This document shows, in pieces, positions 2,938 through 44,128 of a stretch of DNA of 64,000 nucleotides. The position numbers and the translations under genes are program-made. The stretch is from a virus (lineage: Duplodnaviria > Caudoviricetes). Below the pieces are notes generated by a model. It was not told the origin of the DNA and made no database searches. It saw nothing but the letters and a program-made list of their open reading frames with translations. Within the stretch, counting starts at the first letter, position 1, and the number at the start of each line of letters is the position of its first letter. Where the stretch lies: positions 123,210 through 187,209 of IMG/VR virus record IMGVR_UViG_3300020577_002562. One strand, given 5' to 3'.

Positions 2938-3966
2938 ATGTTACGTCAAGATCATCCGCGATTTCATCAAATGGTGTCCCGACATAGAGCCCTGTGCTCA
3001 GTAAGAAAGATAAAATTCACTGCCAAGATTGTTGACTTGAGCACTACACGTTATTTACATCGTTGTCACTGTGGTCATGCTTGGAAGCAAACTATATCGA
3101 ACTTTGTTGGCCGTACTGGATGTCCTGCTTGTGCGATGCGGCGTTTTCAACTAGCTGGAGCAGCTTCCGCGCGTGGAAAACCTGCGCATACGAGACTAAC
3201 AAAAGGGGAGTTTCTGAAGCGGCTTCCTAAAGGCTATCGTCTAATCGGATCTTACTCAGGACAACGCGAACTAGTCTCATTGAAATGCCCACAAGGTCAC
3301 ATAAGACGAACTACAGCGGACAACGCCCATCGTTATGGCTGTGGTGTATGCTCGGGAGTTGAAGTTTCACTTGACTCCCACAACAAGCAATTGGCTGCTC
3401 TGAATGACCGTGTTCGTTGCCTGCAGTATTTTGGGGCACGCACAGCATCCAGATACCATTGTCTACAGTGTAAGTTTCGCTGGTCTTGCATCCCTACAAA
3501 CATTTTGAAGACTAAACGATGTCATTGTCCGAGCTGTCAACCACCTGGCGTAACTGTCAGATGCGTCAAGCTTGGGCGTCGCAAAGTGCTTGTTCGTGGA
3601 TACGAGCCACAAGCTCTAAACTATTTGATACAAGTGAAGGGGTACAAACCTAACCAGATTCGTACAGAGCTTGAGGGAACTGTCCCAAGAATCAAAGTCA
3701 ATGGGCGACTTCATAAACCCGACTTTTTCATCCCAAGCGATAACCGTCTGGTAGAAGTCAAGTCGATTTTCACTCTCGGACTCAACGGTGAGCTATATTT
3801 CAAAAGAGCATTCCAGAAGTTGAAGACTAACCACGCAAAAGCCCGGGAGGCAGGGTACCGATACAACTTGCTAGTTTTTCTCAAAGACGGAACGCGAGTA
3901 GACATACCTAGTAAGTGGTATCTATTGAGCACTGAACAAATGCGACAGTTACTTCGACAACAATAG
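2938..3966 (+). CDS. putative homing endonuclease, repeated Zn-ribbons + PD-(D/E)XK domain
   Basis: multiple CxC..H..W / CPxC repeats; PDFFIP..N.LVEVKS motif; opposite strand to neighbours; paralog of 7056-7895. Confidence 0.85.
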   Translation: MLRQDHPRFHQMVSRHRALCSVRKIKFTAKIVDLSTTRYLHRCHCGHAWKQTISNFVGRTGCPACAMRRFQLAGAASARGKPAHTRLTKGEFLKRLPKGYRLIGSYSGQRELVSLKCPQGHIRRTTADNAHRYGCGVCSGVEVSLDSHNKQLAALNDRVRCLQYFGARTASRYHCLQCKFRWSCIPTNILKTKRCHCPSCQPPGVTVRCVKLGRRKVLVRGYEPQALNYLIQVKGYKPNQIRTELEGTVPRIKVNGRLHKPDFFIPSDNRLVEVKSIFTLGLNGELYFKRAFQKLKTNHAKAREAGYRYNLLVFLKDGTRVDIPSKWYLLSTEQMRQLLRQQ

Positions 3967-4965
3967 CTCGTCATTTACCGTTAACTCCGATGCCTTCACG
4001 TAATCTTGTCTAGTAACCGACCAAAACTTGTGGTTCGGAGTGCACAGAAGTTCTCTACCATCAATAGTGACGCGCACGAGATGGGTAACAGCTTTCTTTG
4101 TGAAGCTCTCTATGGGTTTGAATTCTCGTTTCCCAGATTGATGATTGAAGCACTCGACAGTCGTCTTGTAGCCGCTTTCTACAATATCACCTAAAGACAT
4201 CAGCCCATTTTTGGTCTTTACTCTATGACCATAGGTGAAGCATTCATCTATGATGATGGTCCCAAAGTGATCCTTGATCTGTTCAAGCTTCTTCTTGCCA
4301 CCAGCAGACAAGAACGTTTGATACGTACACAGCACGATGTCATACTTCAGCATATCCTTGACATCAGTGACTATGCCAGCGATCTTGCGTCCGTTGAACT
4401 TCTCTAGGTCGTCAATGTTGGTTACTGCATCCGCACCTTTGAGCGACAGCATGAACTGGCGCAACCAATCGATCTGGGCCGCAATGATCAGCGTGCGATA
4501 CCCGATCTTGATCGAAGCAGCTATCGCCATCACTGTCTTGCCCGAACGCGGCGGAGACAGTAAGACACCCCGCTTCTTCTTGATGATCGTGCGTACAGGA
4601 TCGCGTTGATTCTTCCAGAGCTTGCCTGTGAATTCGATGGCGTGACGAAACCGCTTGTATTCGGAAGCAGGCTTCTCTCTAGTGACAGTGATCGGCTTAC
4701 CAACTACTTCCTTGACGATTGACGGACGTCCCAACGGTAAACCAAGCATGCCATCTCGTTTGGTCCACAAGTGGTAAGTGCCCCGGAACTCAGGGCATTC
4801 GTCGCAGATGTCACAGTGACGCTCTTCTAGGTACTCACATTTGTTGCATGCTTTCTCGTTGTAGATGCGGATAGTCAGGTGTTTTTTGGCACGCTCTACA
4901 TTCTGCTTCGTAGCTGGCACCCACAGCTTGGAATTACGTACCGCCTCAACTGCTTGAGTCTTCAT
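3949..4965 (-). CDS. N-terminal half of SF2 (UvsW-like) helicase + split intein N-fragment (97 aa, 3952-4242)
   Basis: PPRSGKT Walker A; IIIDE|CFTYGHRV (intein block A); LCTPNHKF (block B TxxH); ASELTVNDEL end. Confidence 0.92.
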   Translation of the reverse strand: MKTQAVEAVRNSKLWVPATKQNVERAKKHLTIRIYNEKACNKCEYLEERHCDICDECPEFRGTYHLWTKRDGMLGLPLGRPSIVKEVVGKPITVTREKPASEYKRFRHAIEFTGKLWKNQRDPVRTIIKKKRGVLLSPPRSGKTVMAIAASIKIGYRTLIIAAQIDWLRQFMLSLKGADAVTNIDDLEKFNGRKIAGIVTDVKDMLKYDIVLCTYQTFLSAGGKKKLEQIKDHFGTIIIDECFTYGHRVKTKNGLMSLGDIVESGYKTTVECFNHQSGKREFKPIESFTKKAVTHLVRVTIDGRELLCTPNHKFWSVTRQDYVKASELTVNDELLLSK

Positions 4966-6544: not shown

Positions 6545-6945
6545 AGCACACCCTCCATCATCCAGGCCAATCGAACAATAGCTCGTTGAACGCGGGTCTT
6601 GTAGTCCGAAAACTCCGCCATGCTAGGTCCACTACGCGGTATCGTAGCCACTTTTTCGCAGCCTGGTCTGGATACAACTGTACCTTCATCTGTATGGTTA
6701 ACGTTTATGCCTTTGAGCAAAGCAAGCTCCAAAGCTTGATCCCCATCTAGTATGGGGTTCCACAGCGCAGTTAATGTTGGAGCAAGATGGATCTGGATAC
6801 CCCATCTATTCGTACCTTGTAAGAAAGTGGTCTTCCACCCAAACGATTTGGCTATATGCTCTAGACATACGCGATCACCGGGTCTCTGCATTCGTGGGTC
6901 GCCGTTGTTGACCTGCATCGCAACATCGTTCAGTTCTGCAATCAT
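6541..6945 (-). CDS. hypothetical protein
   Basis: ATG 6945 with GGGAG SD, overlapping the stop of the stranded remnant; WNP..D..QALEL motif. Confidence 0.6.
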   Translation of the reverse strand: MIAELNDVAMQVNNGDPRMQRPGDRVCLEHIAKSFGWKTTFLQGTNRWGIQIHLAPTLTALWNPILDGDQALELALLKGINVNHTDEGTVVSRPGCEKVATIPRSGPSMAEFSDYKTRVQRAIVRLAWMMEGVL

Positions 6946-7016
6946 GTAGCATGCTCCCGTTTGGTGGCAATCTCCAACGCAGACAAGCTGTTCTTCACTG
7001 CCCACGCTGCTTTATC
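6942..7016 (-). pseudogene. stranded copy of the C-terminus of the 7892-8425 gene
   Basis: translates DKAAWAVKNSLSALEIATKREHAT*, versus DKASWAIKNSLNALEIVTKREHSA* at 7892-7966. Confidence 0.9.
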
Positions 7017-7055
7017 CGAAAGTCACTAATTTGCACGTAGACACCGGAGAAATAT

Positions 7056-7895
7056 ATGCCTCCAGTTTTGCGTTCACAAGTTGAAGTTACTCGTCTACTA
7101 AATAGTAACAATCCAACTATACGATCTATATCCGAGTATAGAGGATGTAGAAGTGAAGGACAATTCGAGTGCTTAGAGTGTAAGCATGTTTGGTCAGCTC
7201 AATGGAGACGCATAATACAAGGCGCAACAAAATGTCCTCGATGCGTATCTGTAAGACTTGGAGGCAAAAACAAGAAAACGCACCAAGTCTATTGTGAAGA
7301 ACTTGCGTTGGTCGATCCTTCTATCCAGCCTCTAGAAAAATACGTCAATAGCTACACGGCTATTTTGCATAGACATGAGTGTGGGCATGAGTGGAGACTA
7401 ATGCCGTTAAACTCACTCCGCGGTAGAGGCTGTCCTAAGTGTAAGCTTCGTTTGCGCACCGTCAAATTGGGGGCCCGAAAGGTTAACGTGCGTGGATATG
7501 AAGCCATAGCTTTAAAGTGGCTTGTTCGTAACAAGAAAGTCAAACCGTCTGAAATACAAACACACAACGAGAAAACGGTACCTAATTTTCTATATCACCA
7601 CAGAGGTAGGCGAACATATTTCCCAGACTTTTACATACCCAAAACGAATTGTATAGTCGAAGTCAAGTCTTTATCAACCGTAGGCATTCTTGGTAACTTC
7701 TTTAATCTTAAACCTAGAACTCTGTTCTCGCTCACACAAGCCAAGGCTAAAGCTGTACTGAACGCAGGCTATCGTTTTAGACTATTGATCATGGGCAGCG
7801 ATGGCAATAGAATACCGACTCCGAAAGGATGGCTTCGTATGACACACAAAGAATTTTGCGCGTCTATCGGACCTGAGCATACCAGCAAACATTAA
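7056..7895 (+). CDS. putative homing endonuclease, Zn-ribbons + PD-(D/E)XK domain
   Basis: CxxCxHxW/CPxC repeats; VKLGARKVNVRGYE and PDFYIP..N.IVEVKS shared with 2938-3966. Confidence 0.85.
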   Translation: MPPVLRSQVEVTRLLNSNNPTIRSISEYRGCRSEGQFECLECKHVWSAQWRRIIQGATKCPRCVSVRLGGKNKKTHQVYCEELALVDPSIQPLEKYVNSYTAILHRHECGHEWRLMPLNSLRGRGCPKCKLRLRTVKLGARKVNVRGYEAIALKWLVRNKKVKPSEIQTHNEKTVPNFLYHHRGRRTYFPDFYIPKTNCIVEVKSLSTVGILGNFFNLKPRTLFSLTQAKAKAVLNAGYRFRLLIMGSDGNRIPTPKGWLRMTHKEFCASIGPEHTSKH

Positions 7896-8425
7896 GCGGA
7901 GTGTTCTCTTTTTGTGACTATCTCAAGAGCGTTTAGACTATTTTTGATTGCCCAAGAAGCTTTGTCGAGGTCTTCCACCACCAAGTTGACCATCTCAAGC
8001 AGAGAGTCTAGGTGATCTACACTTTCTTGAGCCCGCTGTGTCAGCAAATTGATCAGTGCTCGCTGACCGGTCTTGGTACGAACGCCCATATTCGATAGCT
8101 GGGACTGGTACTCGGATTCGATGTATCGTTGAATGCCGAACAGTACAGAGGCCAAGTAGTTCCTGTTGCGTGTGATCAGCAGTATGATTTCAATGCACCG
8201 GCTGCGATAGGACTGGTCTTGAAGCCCAGCCTCTGACAATTTGCGAGCACCGGATTTGCTGGACAAGAGGCGCACACCCCGAGCCTTGTGCAGCTTGATC
8301 ACCTCTTCCAGCCAAGTCTCGAACTGAGGGTCCACTGCACGCTTGGCTACTACTCTGAATGCCTTGTACCGTGTGTCTTGTCTTAACAGCTTACGCAGCT
8401 TGAGCAAGGAGCTAGTTGGCGCCAT
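7892..8425 (-). CDS. helical protein of replication block (possibly UvsY-like recombination mediator)
   Basis: coiled-coil character, size and context; function is a guess. Confidence 0.45.
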   Translation of the reverse strand: MAPTSSLLKLRKLLRQDTRYKAFRVVAKRAVDPQFETWLEEVIKLHKARGVRLLSSKSGARKLSEAGLQDQSYRSRCIEIILLITRNRNYLASVLFGIQRYIESEYQSQLSNMGVRTKTGQRALINLLTQRAQESVDHLDSLLEMVNLVVEDLDKASWAIKNSLNALEIVTKREHSA

Positions 8426-37913: not shown

Positions 37914-38180
37914 CTATTCCTCTACAGTCGGAACGTCTTGCCACACAACTTCGCCGGCAGGTAGCGATATGAATGCCTGTTGCAATACTCGAGGCTTGAG
38001 TACAGGTGGATTCACGTTGTCACTACGTTGCAGCCATCGCAGTCCGTGCGTTGGCTTTAGTACAACGGATGGACCTGTCATCATGTGTTCAGTCAGGTCA
38101 ATCACGCTCGGTTGCTCAAACTCCATCTCAATCTCCTGTTCCGGTTCCGGTTCCGGCGCCGAACTTGGCAAAGACATCAA
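37914..38180 (-). CDS. hypothetical protein
   Basis: LRW...RVLQQ..W.DVP motif of small phage proteins; true start probably internal. Confidence 0.5.
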   Translation of the reverse strand: MMSLPSSAPEPEPEQEIEMEFEQPSVIDLTEHMMTGPSVVLKPTHGLRWLQRSDNVNPPVLKPRVLQQAFISLPAGEVVWQDVPTVEE

Positions 38181-39597
38181 GTTGCTGGGCCATGTGAGGT
38201 TCTGGATTACGCTTGCGTTCTTCCAGCGTCTTACGTTCCTTCTCTACTGTCGCGTGCTCAGCCTCCAGCGTCTTGCGCTCCAGCTTGCGCAACTGAATCA
38301 CCTTCAGCGAATAGATCGTGTGCGCTTCCGCAGGTGTGATGTTCAGCTTCTTTGCTAACCATGCTTCTAGTCCAGCTTGATCCAGATCCAGGTCCAGACT
38401 CTCGATGATTAGCTTCCGGTTGTCCACCGCCAGCATCAACAGTTCAAGGTGCTTCAACCTCTTCTTAGCTTGCTCGATCCAGTATGCACAGGCTTTACGT
38501 TCCAACTCGGTTCGCCATGCAATCCAGGTCGTGAGCATATCCAACACGCTCATGGCACGGACACGCGCTGCACCTTGACCATGCTCGTCGATGTAGCGTT
38601 CCGTAAAGTTCAACGTGTAGCTGGCCCGGTCGCTCAGTTCCGAGTCGATACGGGCCAGCATGTCTTCGCGCTTTGCAGTACGCCCCAACTCGATGGTCAG
38701 CTTGCCGTACTTGTCCGTCTTGGAAGAGTCATCACGGGCACGCAGCACGCCATTCATGTTGTTCAGCTTGGTGAGCATCGACTCCATGCTCCTGGTACCA
38801 GCGAACTTGGTGACTACCACTTTGCCTTTGGAGTCTAGCTGAGGGTTGGCGTATAGTGTAACCCGTCCGCGAGTGCTCTTGAACACCGCTAGTCGATCAG
38901 TGCGAGCCTCTGCATTCCCTTCTGTCTTTGTGAGCTTGCGTTCTGCACCGCCGTACAGGCTTGTAAACTTGAGCGTCTGGGACAGCATCTTAGCCGTCAG
39001 CTTCTCCCCTGAGTAAACTCGCTTCAGCAGCTTGAGCAGGGTCTTGAACTCGAATGCCGGTATGTGTGTCTGTGCACCAGGAGCGATGCCGAAACGACCG
39101 TTGATCAGTGCAATAGGCAGCAATGCTGGCAGTACCAGAGGTTCGATTTCGGAACTGTCGAAGTTAGGTACGAACTCGATGGTAGGTGTGTAGAACTTGT
39201 CGAACACTACCTTGCTGGCAAACTGGCTGAGTCGAACTTCAGTATACCGCATGGCGGCTGCGGTGGATTCACTAAGCGATCCCCAATTGCCAGCACCCTC
39301 CATCAGCGGCATGATGGCATTGGTGTTAGTCATCTTCACGATGGCCTCATACGCCGCAGAGTCCCCGTGGGGGTGATACTTACCGAGTGTTTCGCCAACA
39401 ACACGGGCGCTCTTGACGTATTTGGCCGTCGGCATCAAGCCCAAGCCATACGCCGCCCACAGAGCGCGACGATTGACCGGATTGAAGCCATCGCGGTAGT
39501 CAGGTATGGCACGATCCTCCAACACCGCTATCCCGTACTTGTAATACTGGCGCTTGGCGAACGAGTGTAGCTTTGTCTGCTTGACAGGCTTAGTCAT
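38128..39597 (-). CDS. gyrA: type IIA topoisomerase subunit A (GyrA/ParC-like, no C-terminal pinwheel)
   Basis: DRAIPDYRDG.NPV.RR; KSARVVGETLGKYHPHGD; AAMRYTE. Confidence 0.93.
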   Translation of the reverse strand: MTKPVKQTKLHSFAKRQYYKYGIAVLEDRAIPDYRDGFNPVNRRALWAAYGLGLMPTAKYVKSARVVGETLGKYHPHGDSAAYEAIVKMTNTNAIMPLMEGAGNWGSLSESTAAAMRYTEVRLSQFASKVVFDKFYTPTIEFVPNFDSSEIEPLVLPALLPIALINGRFGIAPGAQTHIPAFEFKTLLKLLKRVYSGEKLTAKMLSQTLKFTSLYGGAERKLTKTEGNAEARTDRLAVFKSTRGRVTLYANPQLDSKGKVVVTKFAGTRSMESMLTKLNNMNGVLRARDDSSKTDKYGKLTIELGRTAKREDMLARIDSELSDRASYTLNFTERYIDEHGQGAARVRAMSVLDMLTTWIAWRTELERKACAYWIEQAKKRLKHLELLMLAVDNRKLIIESLDLDLDQAGLEAWLAKKLNITPAEAHTIYSLKVIQLRKLERKTLEAEHATVEKERKTLEERKRNPEPHMAQQLDVFAKFGAGTGTGTGD

Positions 39598-39615: not shown

Positions 39616-39930
39616 CTACGTTGGATACATAATTACGTCGATGCTGCGGGCTCTCAAGTAGTCTATAGCATCCCATGCCGCTGTGTCCTTCGCATGGTGG
39701 TGATCTACAACCACTTGAGTAATTTCTCCGCTCGAAAATGGTCGAAAGAATGTGTCGGTAAGTGAAGATGCTCGAATGATGCGCAAATCTTCTCTACCGA
39801 GGGCTCTGGCAAGCCACATCGGGTACCTCAGATCACTGTTGCACCACACGAACACGGCGTTGGGCTTGGCGTCCCGCATCATCCGTGATGTTCTGCCTGT
39901 AACTGAGTTGGGCGTAGACTGCGCCATCAT
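39616..39930 (-). CDS. hypothetical protein
   Basis: ATGA overlap with gyrB. Confidence 0.55.
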   Translation of the reverse strand: MMAQSTPNSVTGRTSRMMRDAKPNAVFVWCNSDLRYPMWLARALGREDLRIIRASSLTDTFFRPFSSGEITQVVVDHHHAKDTAAWDAIDYLRARSIDVIMYPT

Positions 39931-41777
39931 TGCACTCCGAACAGTTCTTTGCGGTACGCTGAGTCTTTGCCCATCAGCAGCCGGAACTCATTGGCCCCAT
40001 TCTTGTCGGGGCCATTCACTCGGTAGAGAATGCGACGATCTGGGCTCAGTGCGATGTCCAACTCGTTCTCACTGATCTCACCCCAACCCTTGATGTATGT
40101 GATCGCCAGCTTGTCTGCGTCTACACCAGTGCGCTTGGCAATGGTCTCCTTCTTCATGCCAAAGTACAGCTTGCCCTTGTGCCAGCACTTGTAGAGCGGC
40201 GCCCTGACCACATGCACCACACCTTGCTTGAACAAGTGCGGCATGTAGCGCCACAAGATCGCCAAGCACAAGCAGTTGATGTGAGAACCGTCCACGTCCG
40301 GGTCCGCCATCGCAATGACTTTGCCGTAGCGGACAGTTGGTGGACCCTTCTTACCAAGCTCAACACCCAACGCAGCCAGTAGACCAACCACTTCTTTGTT
40401 GCTGTTTACTTTACCGGCATCCGCTTCCATCACGTTCAACGGCTTGCCACGTAGCGGGTAGATGGCTTGGAACGACTTGTCCCGCGCACGCTTGGCACCA
40501 CCCCCTGCGCTCTCACCTTCTACGATGAACAACTCGCACTCACCGGGTGGCCGCTTGCCGCTAACGTCTGCCAACTTGGTGCCGATGGTTTTCTTAGCCG
40601 AGTTGACTTCCTTGATCAGCTTCTTGTCTTTGAGGAAGTCTGCTGTACGTTCTCTCAGTTGAGCGGCACGAGCACACAGTTCCTTGGTGAATGTCTTGTT
40701 GACTTTGAAGAAGCTCTCGAACACCTTCAAGCACTCATTGTAGCAGGGCTCCTTGACTCGAATATCTACGAGCTTGTCTTTGGTCTGACTGCTGAACTGA
40801 GGTGCAGTGACTTTGTAGTTGAGCACACCCACCAGACCCTCGCGTAGATCCGTCGGAGTGAAGTGCTGACGCGCTCCCTTGTACGGCTCAATGGCATCGA
40901 CCAGTGCCTTGAACATAGCATCGGCGTGGATGCCTCGGTCAGCGTTGCGCACAGTGTTAGTAAAGAACTCGACTTGCTCACCTTCCGCGTTTGTGAAGTT
41001 GAGACACAGGTCAAGCGTGTGCGAAGTGTGGTGGAGTGGAGTCTTGTTGAAGGGCTCTGCCGACAACTCTTTCATTCGCTTCGCCAAGTACTCCTGCACA
41101 CCCTTCTTCGAGAACCACTGGCGCATCTTGCCATTGTGGAACACTTGGATGGTCAGACCGGCATTCATGTAGGCAGTCATCTCTGCCCACACCGTAAGCC
41201 GCTTCATGTCCAGTTGGTGCTTGCCGAAGATGTCCGGGTCCGGTGTGAACTGGATCACTGTACCAGACTTGATAGACTTGCCAGCGATCTTGGGGGGTCG
41301 GCACTTCTTGACCGGCTGCGTTTCACGACCCTGCTTAAACGATGTGCTGTGCCATCCACCACTGTCTTTGCGGTACGTCCAACACATGAAGTTGGAGGAC
41401 AGAGCATTGGTGCCCTTGATTCCAACCCCGTGTGTACCGATGGCCGACTCGTATGCACCCTTCTTCATCTTGCCACTAGACTGCAAGTTGGTCAGCACGT
41501 GAGTCAGCGTGCTGATCTTCATCACTGGGTGTTTGGCAACTGGAATGCCAACCCCGTGATCAATGACAGTGAACTGCCCCTTGTCCACATACACTTGGAT
41601 CAAGTCGTTCCGACCGGCACGGGCTTCATCCACTGCGTTGTCCAAGCACTCACGCAATACGGTGAAGACCCCGTCACTATCGACCGGACCCACATACATA
41701 GCTGGCCGACTACGTATCTTTTCCAGATCTCTTTTGAATGCCGTTATCGAAGTTTCGTCATACCGAGAACGGGTCAT
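39927..41777 (-). CDS. gyrB: type IIA topoisomerase subunit B (GyrB/ParE-like)
   Basis: RPAMYVG, ECLDNAVDE, DHGVGIP, GTHGVG, VEGESAGG, PLRGK, DPDVDG; ATG 41777 with AAGGA SD. Confidence 0.95.
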   Translation of the reverse strand: MTRSRYDETSITAFKRDLEKIRSRPAMYVGPVDSDGVFTVLRECLDNAVDEARAGRNDLIQVYVDKGQFTVIDHGVGIPVAKHPVMKISTLTHVLTNLQSSGKMKKGAYESAIGTHGVGIKGTNALSSNFMCWTYRKDSGGWHSTSFKQGRETQPVKKCRPPKIAGKSIKSGTVIQFTPDPDIFGKHQLDMKRLTVWAEMTAYMNAGLTIQVFHNGKMRQWFSKKGVQEYLAKRMKELSAEPFNKTPLHHTSHTLDLCLNFTNAEGEQVEFFTNTVRNADRGIHADAMFKALVDAIEPYKGARQHFTPTDLREGLVGVLNYKVTAPQFSSQTKDKLVDIRVKEPCYNECLKVFESFFKVNKTFTKELCARAAQLRERTADFLKDKKLIKEVNSAKKTIGTKLADVSGKRPPGECELFIVEGESAGGGAKRARDKSFQAIYPLRGKPLNVMEADAGKVNSNKEVVGLLAALGVELGKKGPPTVRYGKVIAMADPDVDGSHINCLCLAILWRYMPHLFKQGVVHVVRAPLYKCWHKGKLYFGMKKETIAKRTGVDADKLAITYIKGWGEISENELDIALSPDRRILYRVNGPDKNGANEFRLLMGKDSAYRKELFGVQ

Positions 41778-42531
41778 GTCCAATCCTTGAGTTTATCAGC
41801 TTGATACGATGTTGTAGTGATCTGCGGCTAAAGGTGCTACCAGAACCTTTCTTAATGTTGGCTTTGTAGTAGACAACATTAAGATTCGCTGGGTGACACA
41901 ATTCTTCCAATGGTACAGGTTTCTTTCGACGAATTAACGTCTGTTGTATATCAGACCATTTGAAATAGCCTGAAAACACAGAAAGCATGTGATCCACATG
42001 ATACTGCCTAGACCATTTTTCTGCGTTTGGAATGAACTCTGCGTAAAGCCCCATTACAGATCGAGTTAGTTTGTAAACGGTCCTTTTATACTCATCATAG
42101 GAGAGCTTCGATAGATCAAGACGAATCTTCTCCCGTATTGAAACTCTTATCTGCTGCCTACTACGGTGTTTACCTTGTTCCACCATTAGCTTGCGCTGTT
42201 CAACTTTTGAACGCAAAGCTTCATGCTCTTTCAACATACGTTCTATCTTGGAGTGAGATACTCCGTACTGGTCCGCTAGTTCTGCGCAAGTAGCTCCCTT
42301 CCGATAGCTTAGCACAATTTTCTTTTCTGGGAGCTCGACGTAGCGTTTCCTTATCCATCCTTCAGCTTCAGCTAACTTTTGTACTGTTGCGTGTGCGCAT
42401 TTCAGCACGTCAGCTACAGCTCTAAGGGATTGCTCTTCATTTATGTACAGTTTCCTGGCTAAAGCTTTTTTGCTGGGTGTCCAAATGGACGAGAGTCGTC
42501 CTGACTTAGTTCGTGGTCTATCAGGAAACAT
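41758..42531 (-). CDS. putative homing endonuclease (HTH repeats + HNH-like C-terminus)
   Basis: two HTH-like segments; YHVDH...HPANL...NIKKG; AT-rich; GGAG SD before ATG 42531 (alternative GTG 42549). Confidence 0.75.
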   Translation of the reverse strand: MFPDRPRTKSGRLSSIWTPSKKALARKLYINEEQSLRAVADVLKCAHATVQKLAEAEGWIRKRYVELPEKKIVLSYRKGATCAELADQYGVSHSKIERMLKEHEALRSKVEQRKLMVEQGKHRSRQQIRVSIREKIRLDLSKLSYDEYKRTVYKLTRSVMGLYAEFIPNAEKWSRQYHVDHMLSVFSGYFKWSDIQQTLIRRKKPVPLEELCHPANLNVVYYKANIKKGSGSTFSRRSLQHRIKLINSRIGHDPFSV

Positions 42532-42558
42532 AACAGCTCCAATGTACACACTTTCAAA

Positions 42559-42615
42559 TTAGTGTACATTGGCACGCTTGAAAGCAGTGATGTCTTTCTC
42601 TGTGTACTTTGCCAT
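42559..42615 (-). pseudogene. stranded copy of the gyrB N-terminus
   Basis: MAKYTEKDITAFKRANVH* versus gyrB MTRSRYDETSITAFKRD. Confidence 0.85.
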
Positions 42616-42618
42616 GAT

Positions 42619-42987
42619 CTAGAGGATTGTAGTCTCGCTGTTAGTAGTCGTTGACTTAGTCTTTTGACTCTTGGAACTCTTCGGGCTGAAGTGCAGCGCT
42701 CTTGCAAACTTGATCAACCTTTCGGTGTGCATATTTACCCACGTCTTCACCAGATGCAAGTGTTCACACTTTACATGATGGAAACCATGCGGCAAACCTC
42801 TGACTGCATACACATGCCATTGAGGTAACAATGTCTTTTCGTCTACTGCTAATTCTCGGGTAATGTTCCACAAATGGATCCCACGCCAGAACACACGAAA
42901 GCATGTGCGCATTTCGGAGGCTGCACTATCCTGATTAGGTTCCGGTGGATTCACTTCCTGATAGTCTAGTTCCGTCGGATCAAACAT
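42619..42987 (-). CDS. hypothetical protein
   Basis: GGAG SD. Confidence 0.6.
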   Translation of the reverse strand: MFDPTELDYQEVNPPEPNQDSAASEMRTCFRVFWRGIHLWNITRELAVDEKTLLPQWHVYAVRGLPHGFHHVKCEHLHLVKTWVNMHTERLIKFARALHFSPKSSKSQKTKSTTTNSETTIL

Positions 42988-43009
42988 GATTGTTGCTCCA
43001 GAAGTAGAG

Positions 43010-43031
43010 AAGGGGCCAATAAAGGCCCCTT
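43010..43031 (-). terminator. terminator-like hairpin
   Basis: AAGGGGCC/GGCCCCTT stem, pyrimidine tail on minus strand. Confidence 0.55.
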
Positions 43032-43035
43032 ACTG

Positions 43036-43362
43036 CTAAACCCAGTACGTTCCGTTTGCGATGTTAAACTCGGCACCACCATTCAAGTGTGGATCTTCTT
43101 GCCATGGGAACATCCAAGCGTCGTTCACGAAACCGTTCCTCTCCAGTTTGAGCGCAGTGAAAATCACTGGTCCAGAACTCCAGGGCTCTGCCTGAACTTT
43201 CTCAAGTACACAGACCTCTGTAGTACCTAGACGCCATTTTCCAAGAGGAATGCGCTCGTCGAACATGCCCGTGGTGTGATTGTCCGAGTCTATGCGCTCT
43301 AGCGTAGAAACATATGCCAGAGCATCAGCGTTGAGCCCGATGTACTGTGTTGACCGTGCCAT
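43036..43362 (-). CDS. hypothetical protein
   Basis: Q.EPWSSGP..F motif. Confidence 0.6.
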   Translation of the reverse strand: MARSTQYIGLNADALAYVSTLERIDSDNHTTGMFDERIPLGKWRLGTTEVCVLEKVQAEPWSSGPVIFTALKLERNGFVNDAWMFPWQEDPHLNGGAEFNIANGTYWV

Positions 43363-43369
43363 GCGGTTC

Positions 43370-44128
43370 TCACTTGTGAACCGAGTCGAGATACTGAGGT
43401 TGTTGGTCGGTCACGATCACCAAGTCTCGGTCTTTGAACGTGATCTTCTCGTGTCCGTCAGGCTTGTTGTAGTTGACCATGATCGCCGTTGACTTGCCGG
43501 ACTTGACGAACACTCGCTTCTTGTTCTTGCCCCAGTCGATGGTGAACTGAGTTAGCAAACCGATGGTCTTGAACTTGAATTGCTTGGGAGCTTCCGGTGG
43601 ATAAGGAAACACATTGATAGGCTTCACCGGCGCTGGCGTGACAGAAACTGTCGCTACTGGGTGCTCTCCTGTCGCAACCGGATGCGTGATGGACGTAGTG
43701 TGCGAAACTGGCTTACTCCCATCAGCCCCGATAGACGGCTTCGGAAGCCTCTCACGGTAGTTCACCAGATGATCGTAGAGCGTGCGAGCATCTTCCGCGA
43801 CACGCCCCTTCTTGATTTTCTTCTCGTTGAGGGTGTAGAATACAACCAACAGCTTGCCGTGGTACACTTCAAGTTTCATACCCATAGGTTCGTCTAGCAA
43901 GTCATCACCCGGCAGAGTGACCAGCTTGGTCCTGAACTTGGTGTTGCCCGCTACTCCTACAGGACCCCGCATCGAAAACGATGACGGAGTACCAATCATC
44001 TTGACTCCGTTCTTCATCTTGATGTCAATCGCCCTCTTCACCACATCGAGTGCGTACTTCTTCAGTTTCTCTTCTGCCTTGTGGTACTTCGTACTCTCGG
44101 TCTTGATCTTGCCGGTCTTGCGACTCAT
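43370..44128 (-). CDS. hypothetical Lys-rich protein
   Basis: GGAG SD before ATG 44128. Confidence 0.65.
   Translation of the reverse strand: MSRKTGKIKTESTKYHKAEEKLKKYALDVVKRAIDIKMKNGVKMIGTPSSFSMRGPVGVAGNTKFRTKLVTLPGDDLLDEPMGMKLEVYHGKLLVVFYTLNEKKIKKGRVAEDARTLYDHLVNYRERLPKPSIGADGSKPVSHTTSITHPVATGEHPVATVSVTPAPVKPINVFPYPPEAPKQFKFKTIGLLTQFTIDWGKNKKRVFVKSGKSTAIMVNYNKPDGHEKITFKDRDLVIVTDQQPQYLDSVHK

Follow-up and report, generated by a model that had tools for sequence, protein, structure and literature searches.

In the phage DNA analysed here, a free-standing homing endonuclease cassette has very probably settled in the 5' end of gyrB, the essential gene for a GyrB-like topoisomerase II large subunit, rescuing the gene with a replacement start and stranding the old one upstream. 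The DNA is a stretch of 64,000 nucleotides (positions 123,210 to 187,209 of IMG/VR record IMGVR_UViG_3300020577_002562), called the window below, and makes up the final 64 kb of one phage contig of 187,209 bp. The reading is carried by the anatomy of the locus, by the tie of a whole nuclease family to gyrB, by a pair of cultured phages with a filled and an empty allele, by a block of recent transfer and by the foreign composition of the new gene start. All features of the locus lie on the minus strand, and two context genes close the list; ORF stands for open reading frame.

42559-42615, minus strand: stranded, probably original gyrB start, a mini-ORF of 18 codons, whose first 14 codons encode a true GyrB N-terminus of the clade to which the window's gyrB belongs
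42539-42572, minus strand: hairpin at the left end of the cassette (5' arm 42572-42562, loop 42561-42550, 3' arm 42549-42539)
42556-42562, minus strand: promoter-like motif CTAATTT at the border of 5' arm and loop, including the mini-ORF stop codon
41758-42531, minus strand: putative nuclease gene, 257 amino acids, with two N-terminal helix-turn-helix (HTH) domains, a helical linker and a C-terminal His-Me-finger-like domain
41784-41788, minus strand: Shine-Dalgarno sequence AAGGA of the working gyrB, within the 3' end of the nuclease gene and 6 nt upstream of the ATG
41661-41777, minus strand: replacement gyrB 5' end borne by the cassette, codons 1-39, with 0 mismatches to contig L004 over 41662-41777
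39927-41660, minus strand: resident body of the GyrB-like topoisomerase II large subunit; the whole gene encodes 616 amino acids and is intact with all domains
42619-42987, minus strand: upstream ORF of 122 amino acids without a family match, stop codon at 42621-42619
38128-39597, minus strand: GyrA-like partner subunit, downstream of gyrB

The duplicated start of gyrB

A preliminary description of this DNA, made from the letters alone, had proposed that the start of gyrB was replaced and its old N-terminus stranded. Our re-reading bears out its coordinates for the mini-ORF (42615-42559), which opens with an ATG at 42615, 3 nt past the stop codon of the upstream ORF, and closes with a TAA at 42561-42559. 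The encoded peptide is MAKYTEKDITAFKR (the first 14 residues) followed by ANVH. We likewise find the restart of gyrB with its own Shine-Dalgarno sequence in the 3' end of the nuclease gene, with AAGGA at 41788-41784 and the ATG at 41777. The working protein begins MTRSRY...ITAFKR, its ribosome site and first six codons lie inside the nuclease ORF, and the two frames overlap by 20 nt. The product matches PHROG 543 (E 4e-126) and the Pfam domains HATPase_c, DNA_gyraseB, Toprim and GyrB_C, and aligns with its relatives from residue 1.

Both copies of the start encode ITAFKR. The relic spells it atc act gct ttc aag cgt and the working gene ata acg gca ttc aaa aga; the six differences that we count are all synonymous, as the description had remarked. 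Over the 12 alignable codons the two copies share about 50% of their DNA by hand count. The pattern Y.E..I..F.R, like ITAFKR itself, occurs only at the relic and at the working start in a six-frame scan of the whole 187-kb genome, and because of this uniqueness we take the duplication to be real and not due to chance. The relic also matches the N-terminus of GyrB from P0021, a relative that lacks a homing endonuclease gene, at 12 of 14 positions.

A tree built from the GyrB body (the sequence after MYIG) places the window with P0002 (support 99) inside a clade of 17 members (support 95). The N-termini of this clade are of the type K-Y-T/S-E-x-D-I, like the stranded peptide, and ITAFKRD is present in two members, P0025 and P0002. 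The nearest counterpart of the working N-terminus is that of P0029, which belongs to the other clade. It is therefore the relic that agrees with the N-terminal type of the window's own gyrB clade, while the working start does not. Together with the cultured phages described next, this tree supports the proposal that the start of gyrB was replaced.

A filled and an empty allele in cultured phages

In the Burkholderia phage BcepSaruman the gene immediately upstream of gyrB, gp171, encodes a homologue of the nuclease with 30% identity and is annotated as hypothetical. In its sister phage BcepSauron, which lacks this gene and represents the empty allele, gyrB starts one base past the stop codon of the upstream gene. 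The first 23 gyrB codons of Sauron recur stranded at the same place in Saruman with one synonymous difference, and there they run into unrelated sequence and a stop codon, followed by the nuclease gene. The restarted gyrB of Saruman is spelled differently, with partly different residues, for about 26 codons, and it rejoins the Sauron-identical sequence just before the P-G-M-Y-I-G codons, after which the next 600 nt are identical. Altogether Saruman holds about 1,055 nt where Sauron holds about 12 nt, and the two copies of the start in Saruman differ far more than the two phages differ from each other. The preliminary description had expected cassette-free alleles to begin with the stranded peptide. 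This holds for the independent pair, in which the gyrB of Sauron begins with the stranded peptide of Saruman, but for the lineage of the window we found no empty allele; such an allele would read MAKYTEKDITAFKRD...

A filler of 64 nt between the stranded start of Saruman and its MYIG relic (L001 3832-3900) contains a stretch reading R-H-P-E-N, which resembles the R-F-P-E-N of GyrB and may be the fossil of a still earlier host's gyrB start.

Recent transfer and foreign composition

The metagenomic contig L004 encodes a GyrB that is 94% identical to that of the window. Its DNA agrees with the window without a single mismatch over 334 nt (41995-41662) and then shows 189 mismatches in 1,239 nt. 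The identical block consists of the last 218 nt of the nuclease gene upstream of the gyrB ATG and the first 116 nt of gyrB; beyond it the gyrB of L004 falls to 85% identity. By our own estimate, the chance of finding 116 gyrB bases without a mismatch at 15% divergence is about 4e-9. As the zero-mismatch block sits within 15% divergence, the cassette with its new start must recently have moved, or been converted, between two diverged phages. In L004 itself the nuclease is frameshifted and diverged just upstream of the H-x-D-H motif (positions 1-50) and the gyrB frame breaks at 1560-1733, reflecting either a decaying cassette or poor contig ends.

Composition separates the same parts of the locus. 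The G+C content at third codon positions is 0.38 in gyrB codons 1-26 and 0.41 in the nuclease gene, against 0.69-0.70 in the rest of gyrB, and it rises between gyrB codons 26 and 40. The foreign tract in the working gene extends to about codon 39.

A nuclease family tied to gyrB

A word-index protein search with the nuclease returned nothing besides the nuclease itself, whereas an exhaustive HMMER search detected 302 relatives, 60 of them at E<=1e-10. Its own genome holds no paralogue by tblastn. Wherever the surroundings of a family member could be read, the gene lies directly upstream of a phage gyrB (14 of 14: the window, L004, L042, Saruman, P0123-P0129, P0131, P0134 and P0137). The nuclease and gyrB ORFs overlap in every case with the junction in the contig, save one in which they are 18 nt apart, and the working gyrB start lies inside the nuclease 3' end in the other members with a junction read as well. 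Since every context read shows the nuclease adjoining gyrB, mostly with overlapping frames, the nuclease gene and the gyrB start behave as one unit.

At this one fixed site the family is patchily present among relatives. Saruman is filled and Sauron empty, and a family-profile search found no nuclease in 27 related gyrB loci (26 metagenomic loci and one viral contig encoding a related GyrB). In 50,697 deposited phage genomes BcepSaruman alone has a homologue, and tblastn with two further family members against the same records found no other. The family is unannotated and dedicated to gyrB, which is part of what is new here.

Pfam and PHROGs recognise the HTH domains in the first half of the protein and leave the nuclease domain unrecognised. 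In an alignment of 27 full-length members D180, H181, H213, N216 and N225 are invariant, within the pattern H-x-D-H ... H-P-x-N-L ... N-x-x-K. All 27 sequences thus have the conserved His in a D-H pair and the downstream Asn and His metal ligands that the HNH / His-Me finger superfamily requires. The AlphaFold models are confident (predicted local distance difference test score 94 for the whole nuclease and 97.3 for the C-terminal domain), and the model of the C-terminal domain has strands at 40-44, 53-56, 61-64 and 80-84 followed by a helix. The best structural matches of this domain are weak and rich in His-Me/HNH nucleases, namely BrxU, SspE, ScoMcrA, the HNH domain of Cas9, Cap5 and I-HmuI; that to BrxU, of the GmrSD family, has Z 3.8 and a root-mean-square deviation of 3.8 over 90 aligned residues. 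The N-terminal half consists of the two HTH domains, with the DNA-binding domain of GcrA as best structural match (Z 7.7). Fold searches with the whole protein are dominated by the first HTH domain (GcrA, resolvase and Tc3 HTH), and a profile search against PDB sequences gave HTH proteins only. Pfam GmrSD_C is matched by one of the 27 members at E 4.6e-4, and HNH_3 by one at E 0.16. The protein is probably a His-Me finger nuclease of the GmrSD_C type, an assignment made by motif and weak fold match, with profile membership unproven.

Proposed homing of the cassette

The cassette spans about 0.9 kb, roughly from 42573 to 41662. It comprises its own leader (hairpin, CTAATTT and ribosome site), the nuclease gene and the foreign gyrB codons 1 to about 26-39, this replacement start being differently spelled and equipped with its own ribosome site and ATG in an overlap with the last codons of the nuclease gene. 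The nuclease ORF stands by itself, outside any intron or intein, and has a ribosome site of its own; Pfam finds no Hint or intein domain in the protein.

In a mixed infection the nuclease would cut a cassette-free gyrB between the AFKR-type and the MYIG codons. The break would be repaired from the cassette-bearing genome, with the right end pairing in the gyrB body and the left end pairing with, or being joined to, the gyrB 5' relic upstream of the nuclease. Because the repair would copy the cassette-bearing genome, the recipient would gain both the nuclease and the new start, and its own start would be stranded. The stranded copy would be uncuttable because the target stretch is deleted or interrupted, and the new copy would be protected by its recoding and by substitutions such as RSRPA for RAKP. 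What this scheme says of cleavage and where it occurs, of the route of repair and of the part played by the leader is predicted from sequence.

L005-7, L041 and L044 have stranded starts as well. The old sequence is recognisable in all five up to nearly the same point (to within a few aligned codons), 7-10 codons ahead of MYIG, in a stretch that is the most conserved part of the N-terminal region. That all relics stop near one point suggests that the target of the nuclease lies there. Most cassettes in addition keep a V/M-Y-I/T-G piece just before the nuclease ATG, and the glycine codon of this piece supplies the ribosome site of the nuclease gene. In Saruman it matches the P-G-M-Y-I-G codons of Sauron at 15 of 17 bases. 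The 3' arm of the window hairpin reads VYIG, which is probably a relic of the MYIG codons of the old gene; the relic would then be longer than 14 codons, with degraded pieces reaching up to the nuclease ATG.

A conserved hairpin and promoter-like motif in the leader

The stem of the hairpin in the window has 11 bp (42572-42562 with 42549-42539), and its 3' arm reaches the ribosome site of the nuclease gene, GGAG at 42540-42537. The 68-nt leader folds with -19.7 kcal/mol (z = -2.8). We compared the arms in register by script, since the loop lengths differ, and found compensatory double changes in three of 10 pairs and no broken pair among the window, L044, L045 and L037, the nucleases of the latter three being 29-34% identical to that of the window. 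A palindromic site at which a protein binds the DNA could account for these changes just as well; M-Y-I in its usual spelling, ATGTACAT, is palindromic by itself.

In the window, L044 and L045 the motif CTAATTT is found within the loop or next to it; in L041 it falls in the 5' arm, and in L040 it precedes the nuclease start by 38 nt. Across the genome of the window, nine of its 19 copies precede a same-strand gene start by 13-55 nt, where 1.0 would be expected at random and the maximum in 2,000 random trials was 6. One of the copies stands 30 nt before an endonuclease-like gene at 7056. TAATTT as such is depleted in the genome (32 copies against about 68 expected), and CACTAATTT is about 8-fold enriched. 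CTAATTT is probably a class of phage promoter; a scan for sigma-70 promoters and terminators gave nothing useful. Sites of the motif include 2895, 7026, 42562 and 52892 in the window and 115876 in the genome, the last between the arms of a 10-bp inverted repeat.

The left end of the cassette is thus a conserved module of hairpin, promoter-like motif and ribosome site common to distant family members. From this arrangement we infer a promoter-like element inside a hairpin that would hide the ribosome site of the nuclease gene. Alternatively or in addition, the mini-ORF may act as a leader: it retains the start of the old gyrB and its stop codon falls within the motif, so that a ribosome moving along it would open up the 5' arm. 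Gott and colleagues reportedly found in 1988 that T4 endonuclease genes are gated by hairpins hiding their ribosome sites and by internal late promoters, and the gating of the leader proposed here resembles that of these intron endonuclease genes.

A further suggestion, which we offer tentatively and think rather unlikely as a whole, is that the stranded start is a working part of the element. It would serve as left homology arm, as hairpin-promoter switch (reshaped from the relic of the MYIG codons and concealing the ribosome site of the nuclease gene) and as translated leader opening the hairpin, and would make up, with the gyrB start inside the nuclease gene, a self-regulating, 'addictive' homing module for the phage topoisomerase. 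If this is true, the left homology arm would let the cassette home into gyrB without an intron or intein. With the only start of gyrB inside the nuclease gene, simple loss of the nuclease would be lethal.

Alternative explanations

Several observations weigh against a homing cassette or narrow what can be claimed for it. The sliding identity of the working GyrB to the two clades gives a faint chimera signal only, at most +0.12 towards the foreign clade at residues 31-70, too weak to place a breakpoint. A cassette-free allele of the window's lineage was not found in our scans of viral and metagenome gyrB: a degenerate DNA pattern standing for an allele that opens with the stranded peptide matched nothing in viral contigs, and none of the scanned gyrB loci has the upstream genes of the window. 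That the stranded peptide is the phage's own start is probable from the tree and from the analogy with Saruman and Sauron. Four family members (L008, L010, L037 and L040) have no stranded relic. The structural matches to nucleases are weak throughout (Z <= 3.8, Foldseek E >= 0.6), and the nuclease of the window matches no Pfam HNH profile. The term HNH-like used in the preliminary description therefore holds for the His-Me-finger motif and, weakly, for the fold, but not at the level of Pfam models. Cleavage and homing are predicted, not observed, for every member of the family. In the more distant contig L042, finally, the nuclease is 76% identical to ours and the working start is of our type, down to the unusual RSRPA where the clade normally has RAKP. 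Identity to the window is about 70-80% across nuclease and gyrB alike, so the association can be stably inherited. As L042 shares the start type, and nuclease and gyrB have co-diverged, the nuclease and its start have also been passed on jointly over longer times.

Such co-divergence would suit a different view, in which the nuclease-like protein is a stable accessory gene of gyrB, a DNA-binding regulator or co-translated partner, and the duplicated start is a scar left by a local rearrangement long ago. We consider this improbable, even with tandem HTH domains in the protein and all 14 members sitting upstream of gyrB, mostly in overlapping frames. The gene is patchy, being absent from Sauron though this phage is nearly identical to Saruman and from the 27 related loci, and its residues of nuclease type are invariant. 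A local scar is also hard to reconcile with the foreign composition, with 334 nt free of mismatches inside 15% divergence, or with start copies that share only about half of their DNA and that differ, in Saruman, far more than the two phages do.

Still less probable is a reading of the mini-ORF as the first exon of gyrB, with RNA splicing (a group I or group II intron), a ribosomal bypass like that of T4 gene 60 or protein splicing linking it to the rest. A search with Rfam models (cmscan, permissive filters) found no intron family at E<=10 in 41000-43500 and no credible RNA, only chance-level hits to unrelated families, and there are no intein motifs. Short 5' exons beside endonuclease genes are known in phages, as in the ICP1 terminase (PMC10448857), and the homologous topoisomerase gene of T4 does use bypass (bioRxiv 10.1101/2022.08.31.505936), but here the nuclease is followed by a complete second N-terminus with ribosome site and ATG, which would be pointless inside an intron. 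The working gene, moreover, needs no exon for its alignment from residue 1, and the stranded ORF stops in a conserved hairpin and is broken at different points in other members. An assembly chimera or collapsed population variant, which the poor and diverged ends of contig L004 might suggest, can be set aside as extremely improbable, since the same architecture occurs in the BcepSaruman isolate genome and in independent assemblies from many samples, and the junction of nuclease and gyrB recurs in L004 and L042.

Comparison with known gene-end elements

The replacement of a gene end by a homing element has precedents outside phages. In WHO elements of the yeasts Torulaspora and Lachancea, a homing nuclease replaces the 3' end of the essential gene FBA1 (Coughlan et al. 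2020, eLife, PMC7282813). There as here an essential conserved gene has one end replaced by the element's own copy at each integration, the old end remains as a relic and no splicing is involved. WHO elements differ in replacing the 3' end, in a eukaryotic nucleus, whereas the phage cassette exchanges the 5' end, translation start included; their nuclease is an intein-derived LAGLIDADG/zinc-finger protein, as opposed to tandem HTH domains joined to a His-Me-finger-like domain. The mORF 'gene hybrids' of fungal mitochondria (Allomyces atp6; Glomus atp6, atp9, cox2 and nad3; Beaudet et al. 2013, PMC3630166) are alike in that an endonuclease ORF travels with a foreign gene end, which is diverged in DNA and conserved in protein, while the stranded native end is closer to relatives. 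They are unlike the phage cassette in replacing C-termini only, in using LAGLIDADG or GIY-YIG nucleases and in residing in organelle genomes. The cassette works like these gene-end-replacing elements without being a member of either by descent, because it replaces a 5' end and has a nuclease of HTH and His-Me-finger-like type.

The MobA / gene 60 element was reportedly described by Bonocora and colleagues in 2011. It is a free-standing homing endonuclease of HNH type in T4-like phages, dedicated like ours to the gene for the large subunit of topoisomerase II (Manning and Atkins, bioRxiv 10.1101/2022.08.31.505936). As proposed for the present cassette, its extra sequence keeps the gene functional and shields the filled allele from cutting. 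With MobA, an insertion in the Toprim domain splits the protein, Topo2L, into two subunits, with added tails and a 50-nt ribosomal bypass, whereas nothing is split here: the phage cassette sits within the first ~30 gyrB codons, and a short 5' piece is discarded and replaced. The HNH domain of MobA is N-terminal, an architecture different from that of our nuclease.

Free-standing endonucleases of the T4 seg and mob types promote intronless homing with co-conversion of flanking markers. Such homing by T4-type enzymes is also described by Barth et al. 2023 (PMC10448857). The present cassette resembles them in three respects: the nuclease gene adjoins an essential gene, occurs patchily and marks the edge of a recombination tract. 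The classical cases, however, are intergenic and have no duplicated gene end, while here the only start of the host gene lies in the nuclease gene. In the literature searched, we came across no account, for any phage, of a homing endonuclease replacing a gene's 5' end. What is new here is this 5'-end version in phages, the nuclease family dedicated to gyrB, the cultured pair of filled and empty alleles and the conserved leader with covariation.

Other putative selfish elements in the genome and its relatives

The preliminary description had called the gyrB locus the mirror image of a C-terminal replacement at 7 kb. The duplicated gene end there is real: the last ~25 residues of the gene at 7892-8425 (minus strand) recur in diverged form at 6939-7055 (minus strand), beyond an opposite-strand Zn-ribbon ORF at 7056-7895 (plus strand), which has CTAATTT 30 nt before its ATG. 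The nuclease there is a different one, and the nuclease of the gyrB locus has no paralogue in the genome.

A helicase-like ORF at 3949-4965 of the window (minus strand) ends in an intein-like N-terminal piece right after a DE motif (DEC|F...). Several relatives of the window's GyrB (P0077, P0080, P0119, P0105 and P0088) carry intein (PF14890), Hint-like (PF07591) or HNH_3 domains, and the GyrA of L040 carries an intein (4759-4786). The gyrB genes of BcepSaruman (L001 4818-7397), BcepSauron (L002 2974-5565) and the Ralstonia phage phiRSL1 (222310-224754) match the window's GyrB in two pieces spanning about 2.4 kb against 1.85 kb, and so have an internal insertion, possibly an intein. For selfish elements of several kinds, the phage topoisomerase genes of this clade seem to form a hotspot.

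Significance

The cassette would add a third route by which a selfish nuclease can enter an essential gene. Besides self-splicing, as in introns and inteins, and the splitting of a gene into subunits, as with MobA and MobE, an element can bring its own gene start. The nuclease family is one to annotate, BcepSaruman gp171 being currently a 'hypothetical protein'. BcepSaruman and BcepSauron are cultured, nearly identical and respectively filled and empty, so that homing, the cleavage site and the co-conversion tract are directly measurable in this pair. Such cassettes also create short orphan ORFs and chimeric 5' ends, which mislead start-codon calling and single-gene phylogenies. The conserved hairpin and motif would offer a concrete example of the restraint of a selfish nuclease by a phage.

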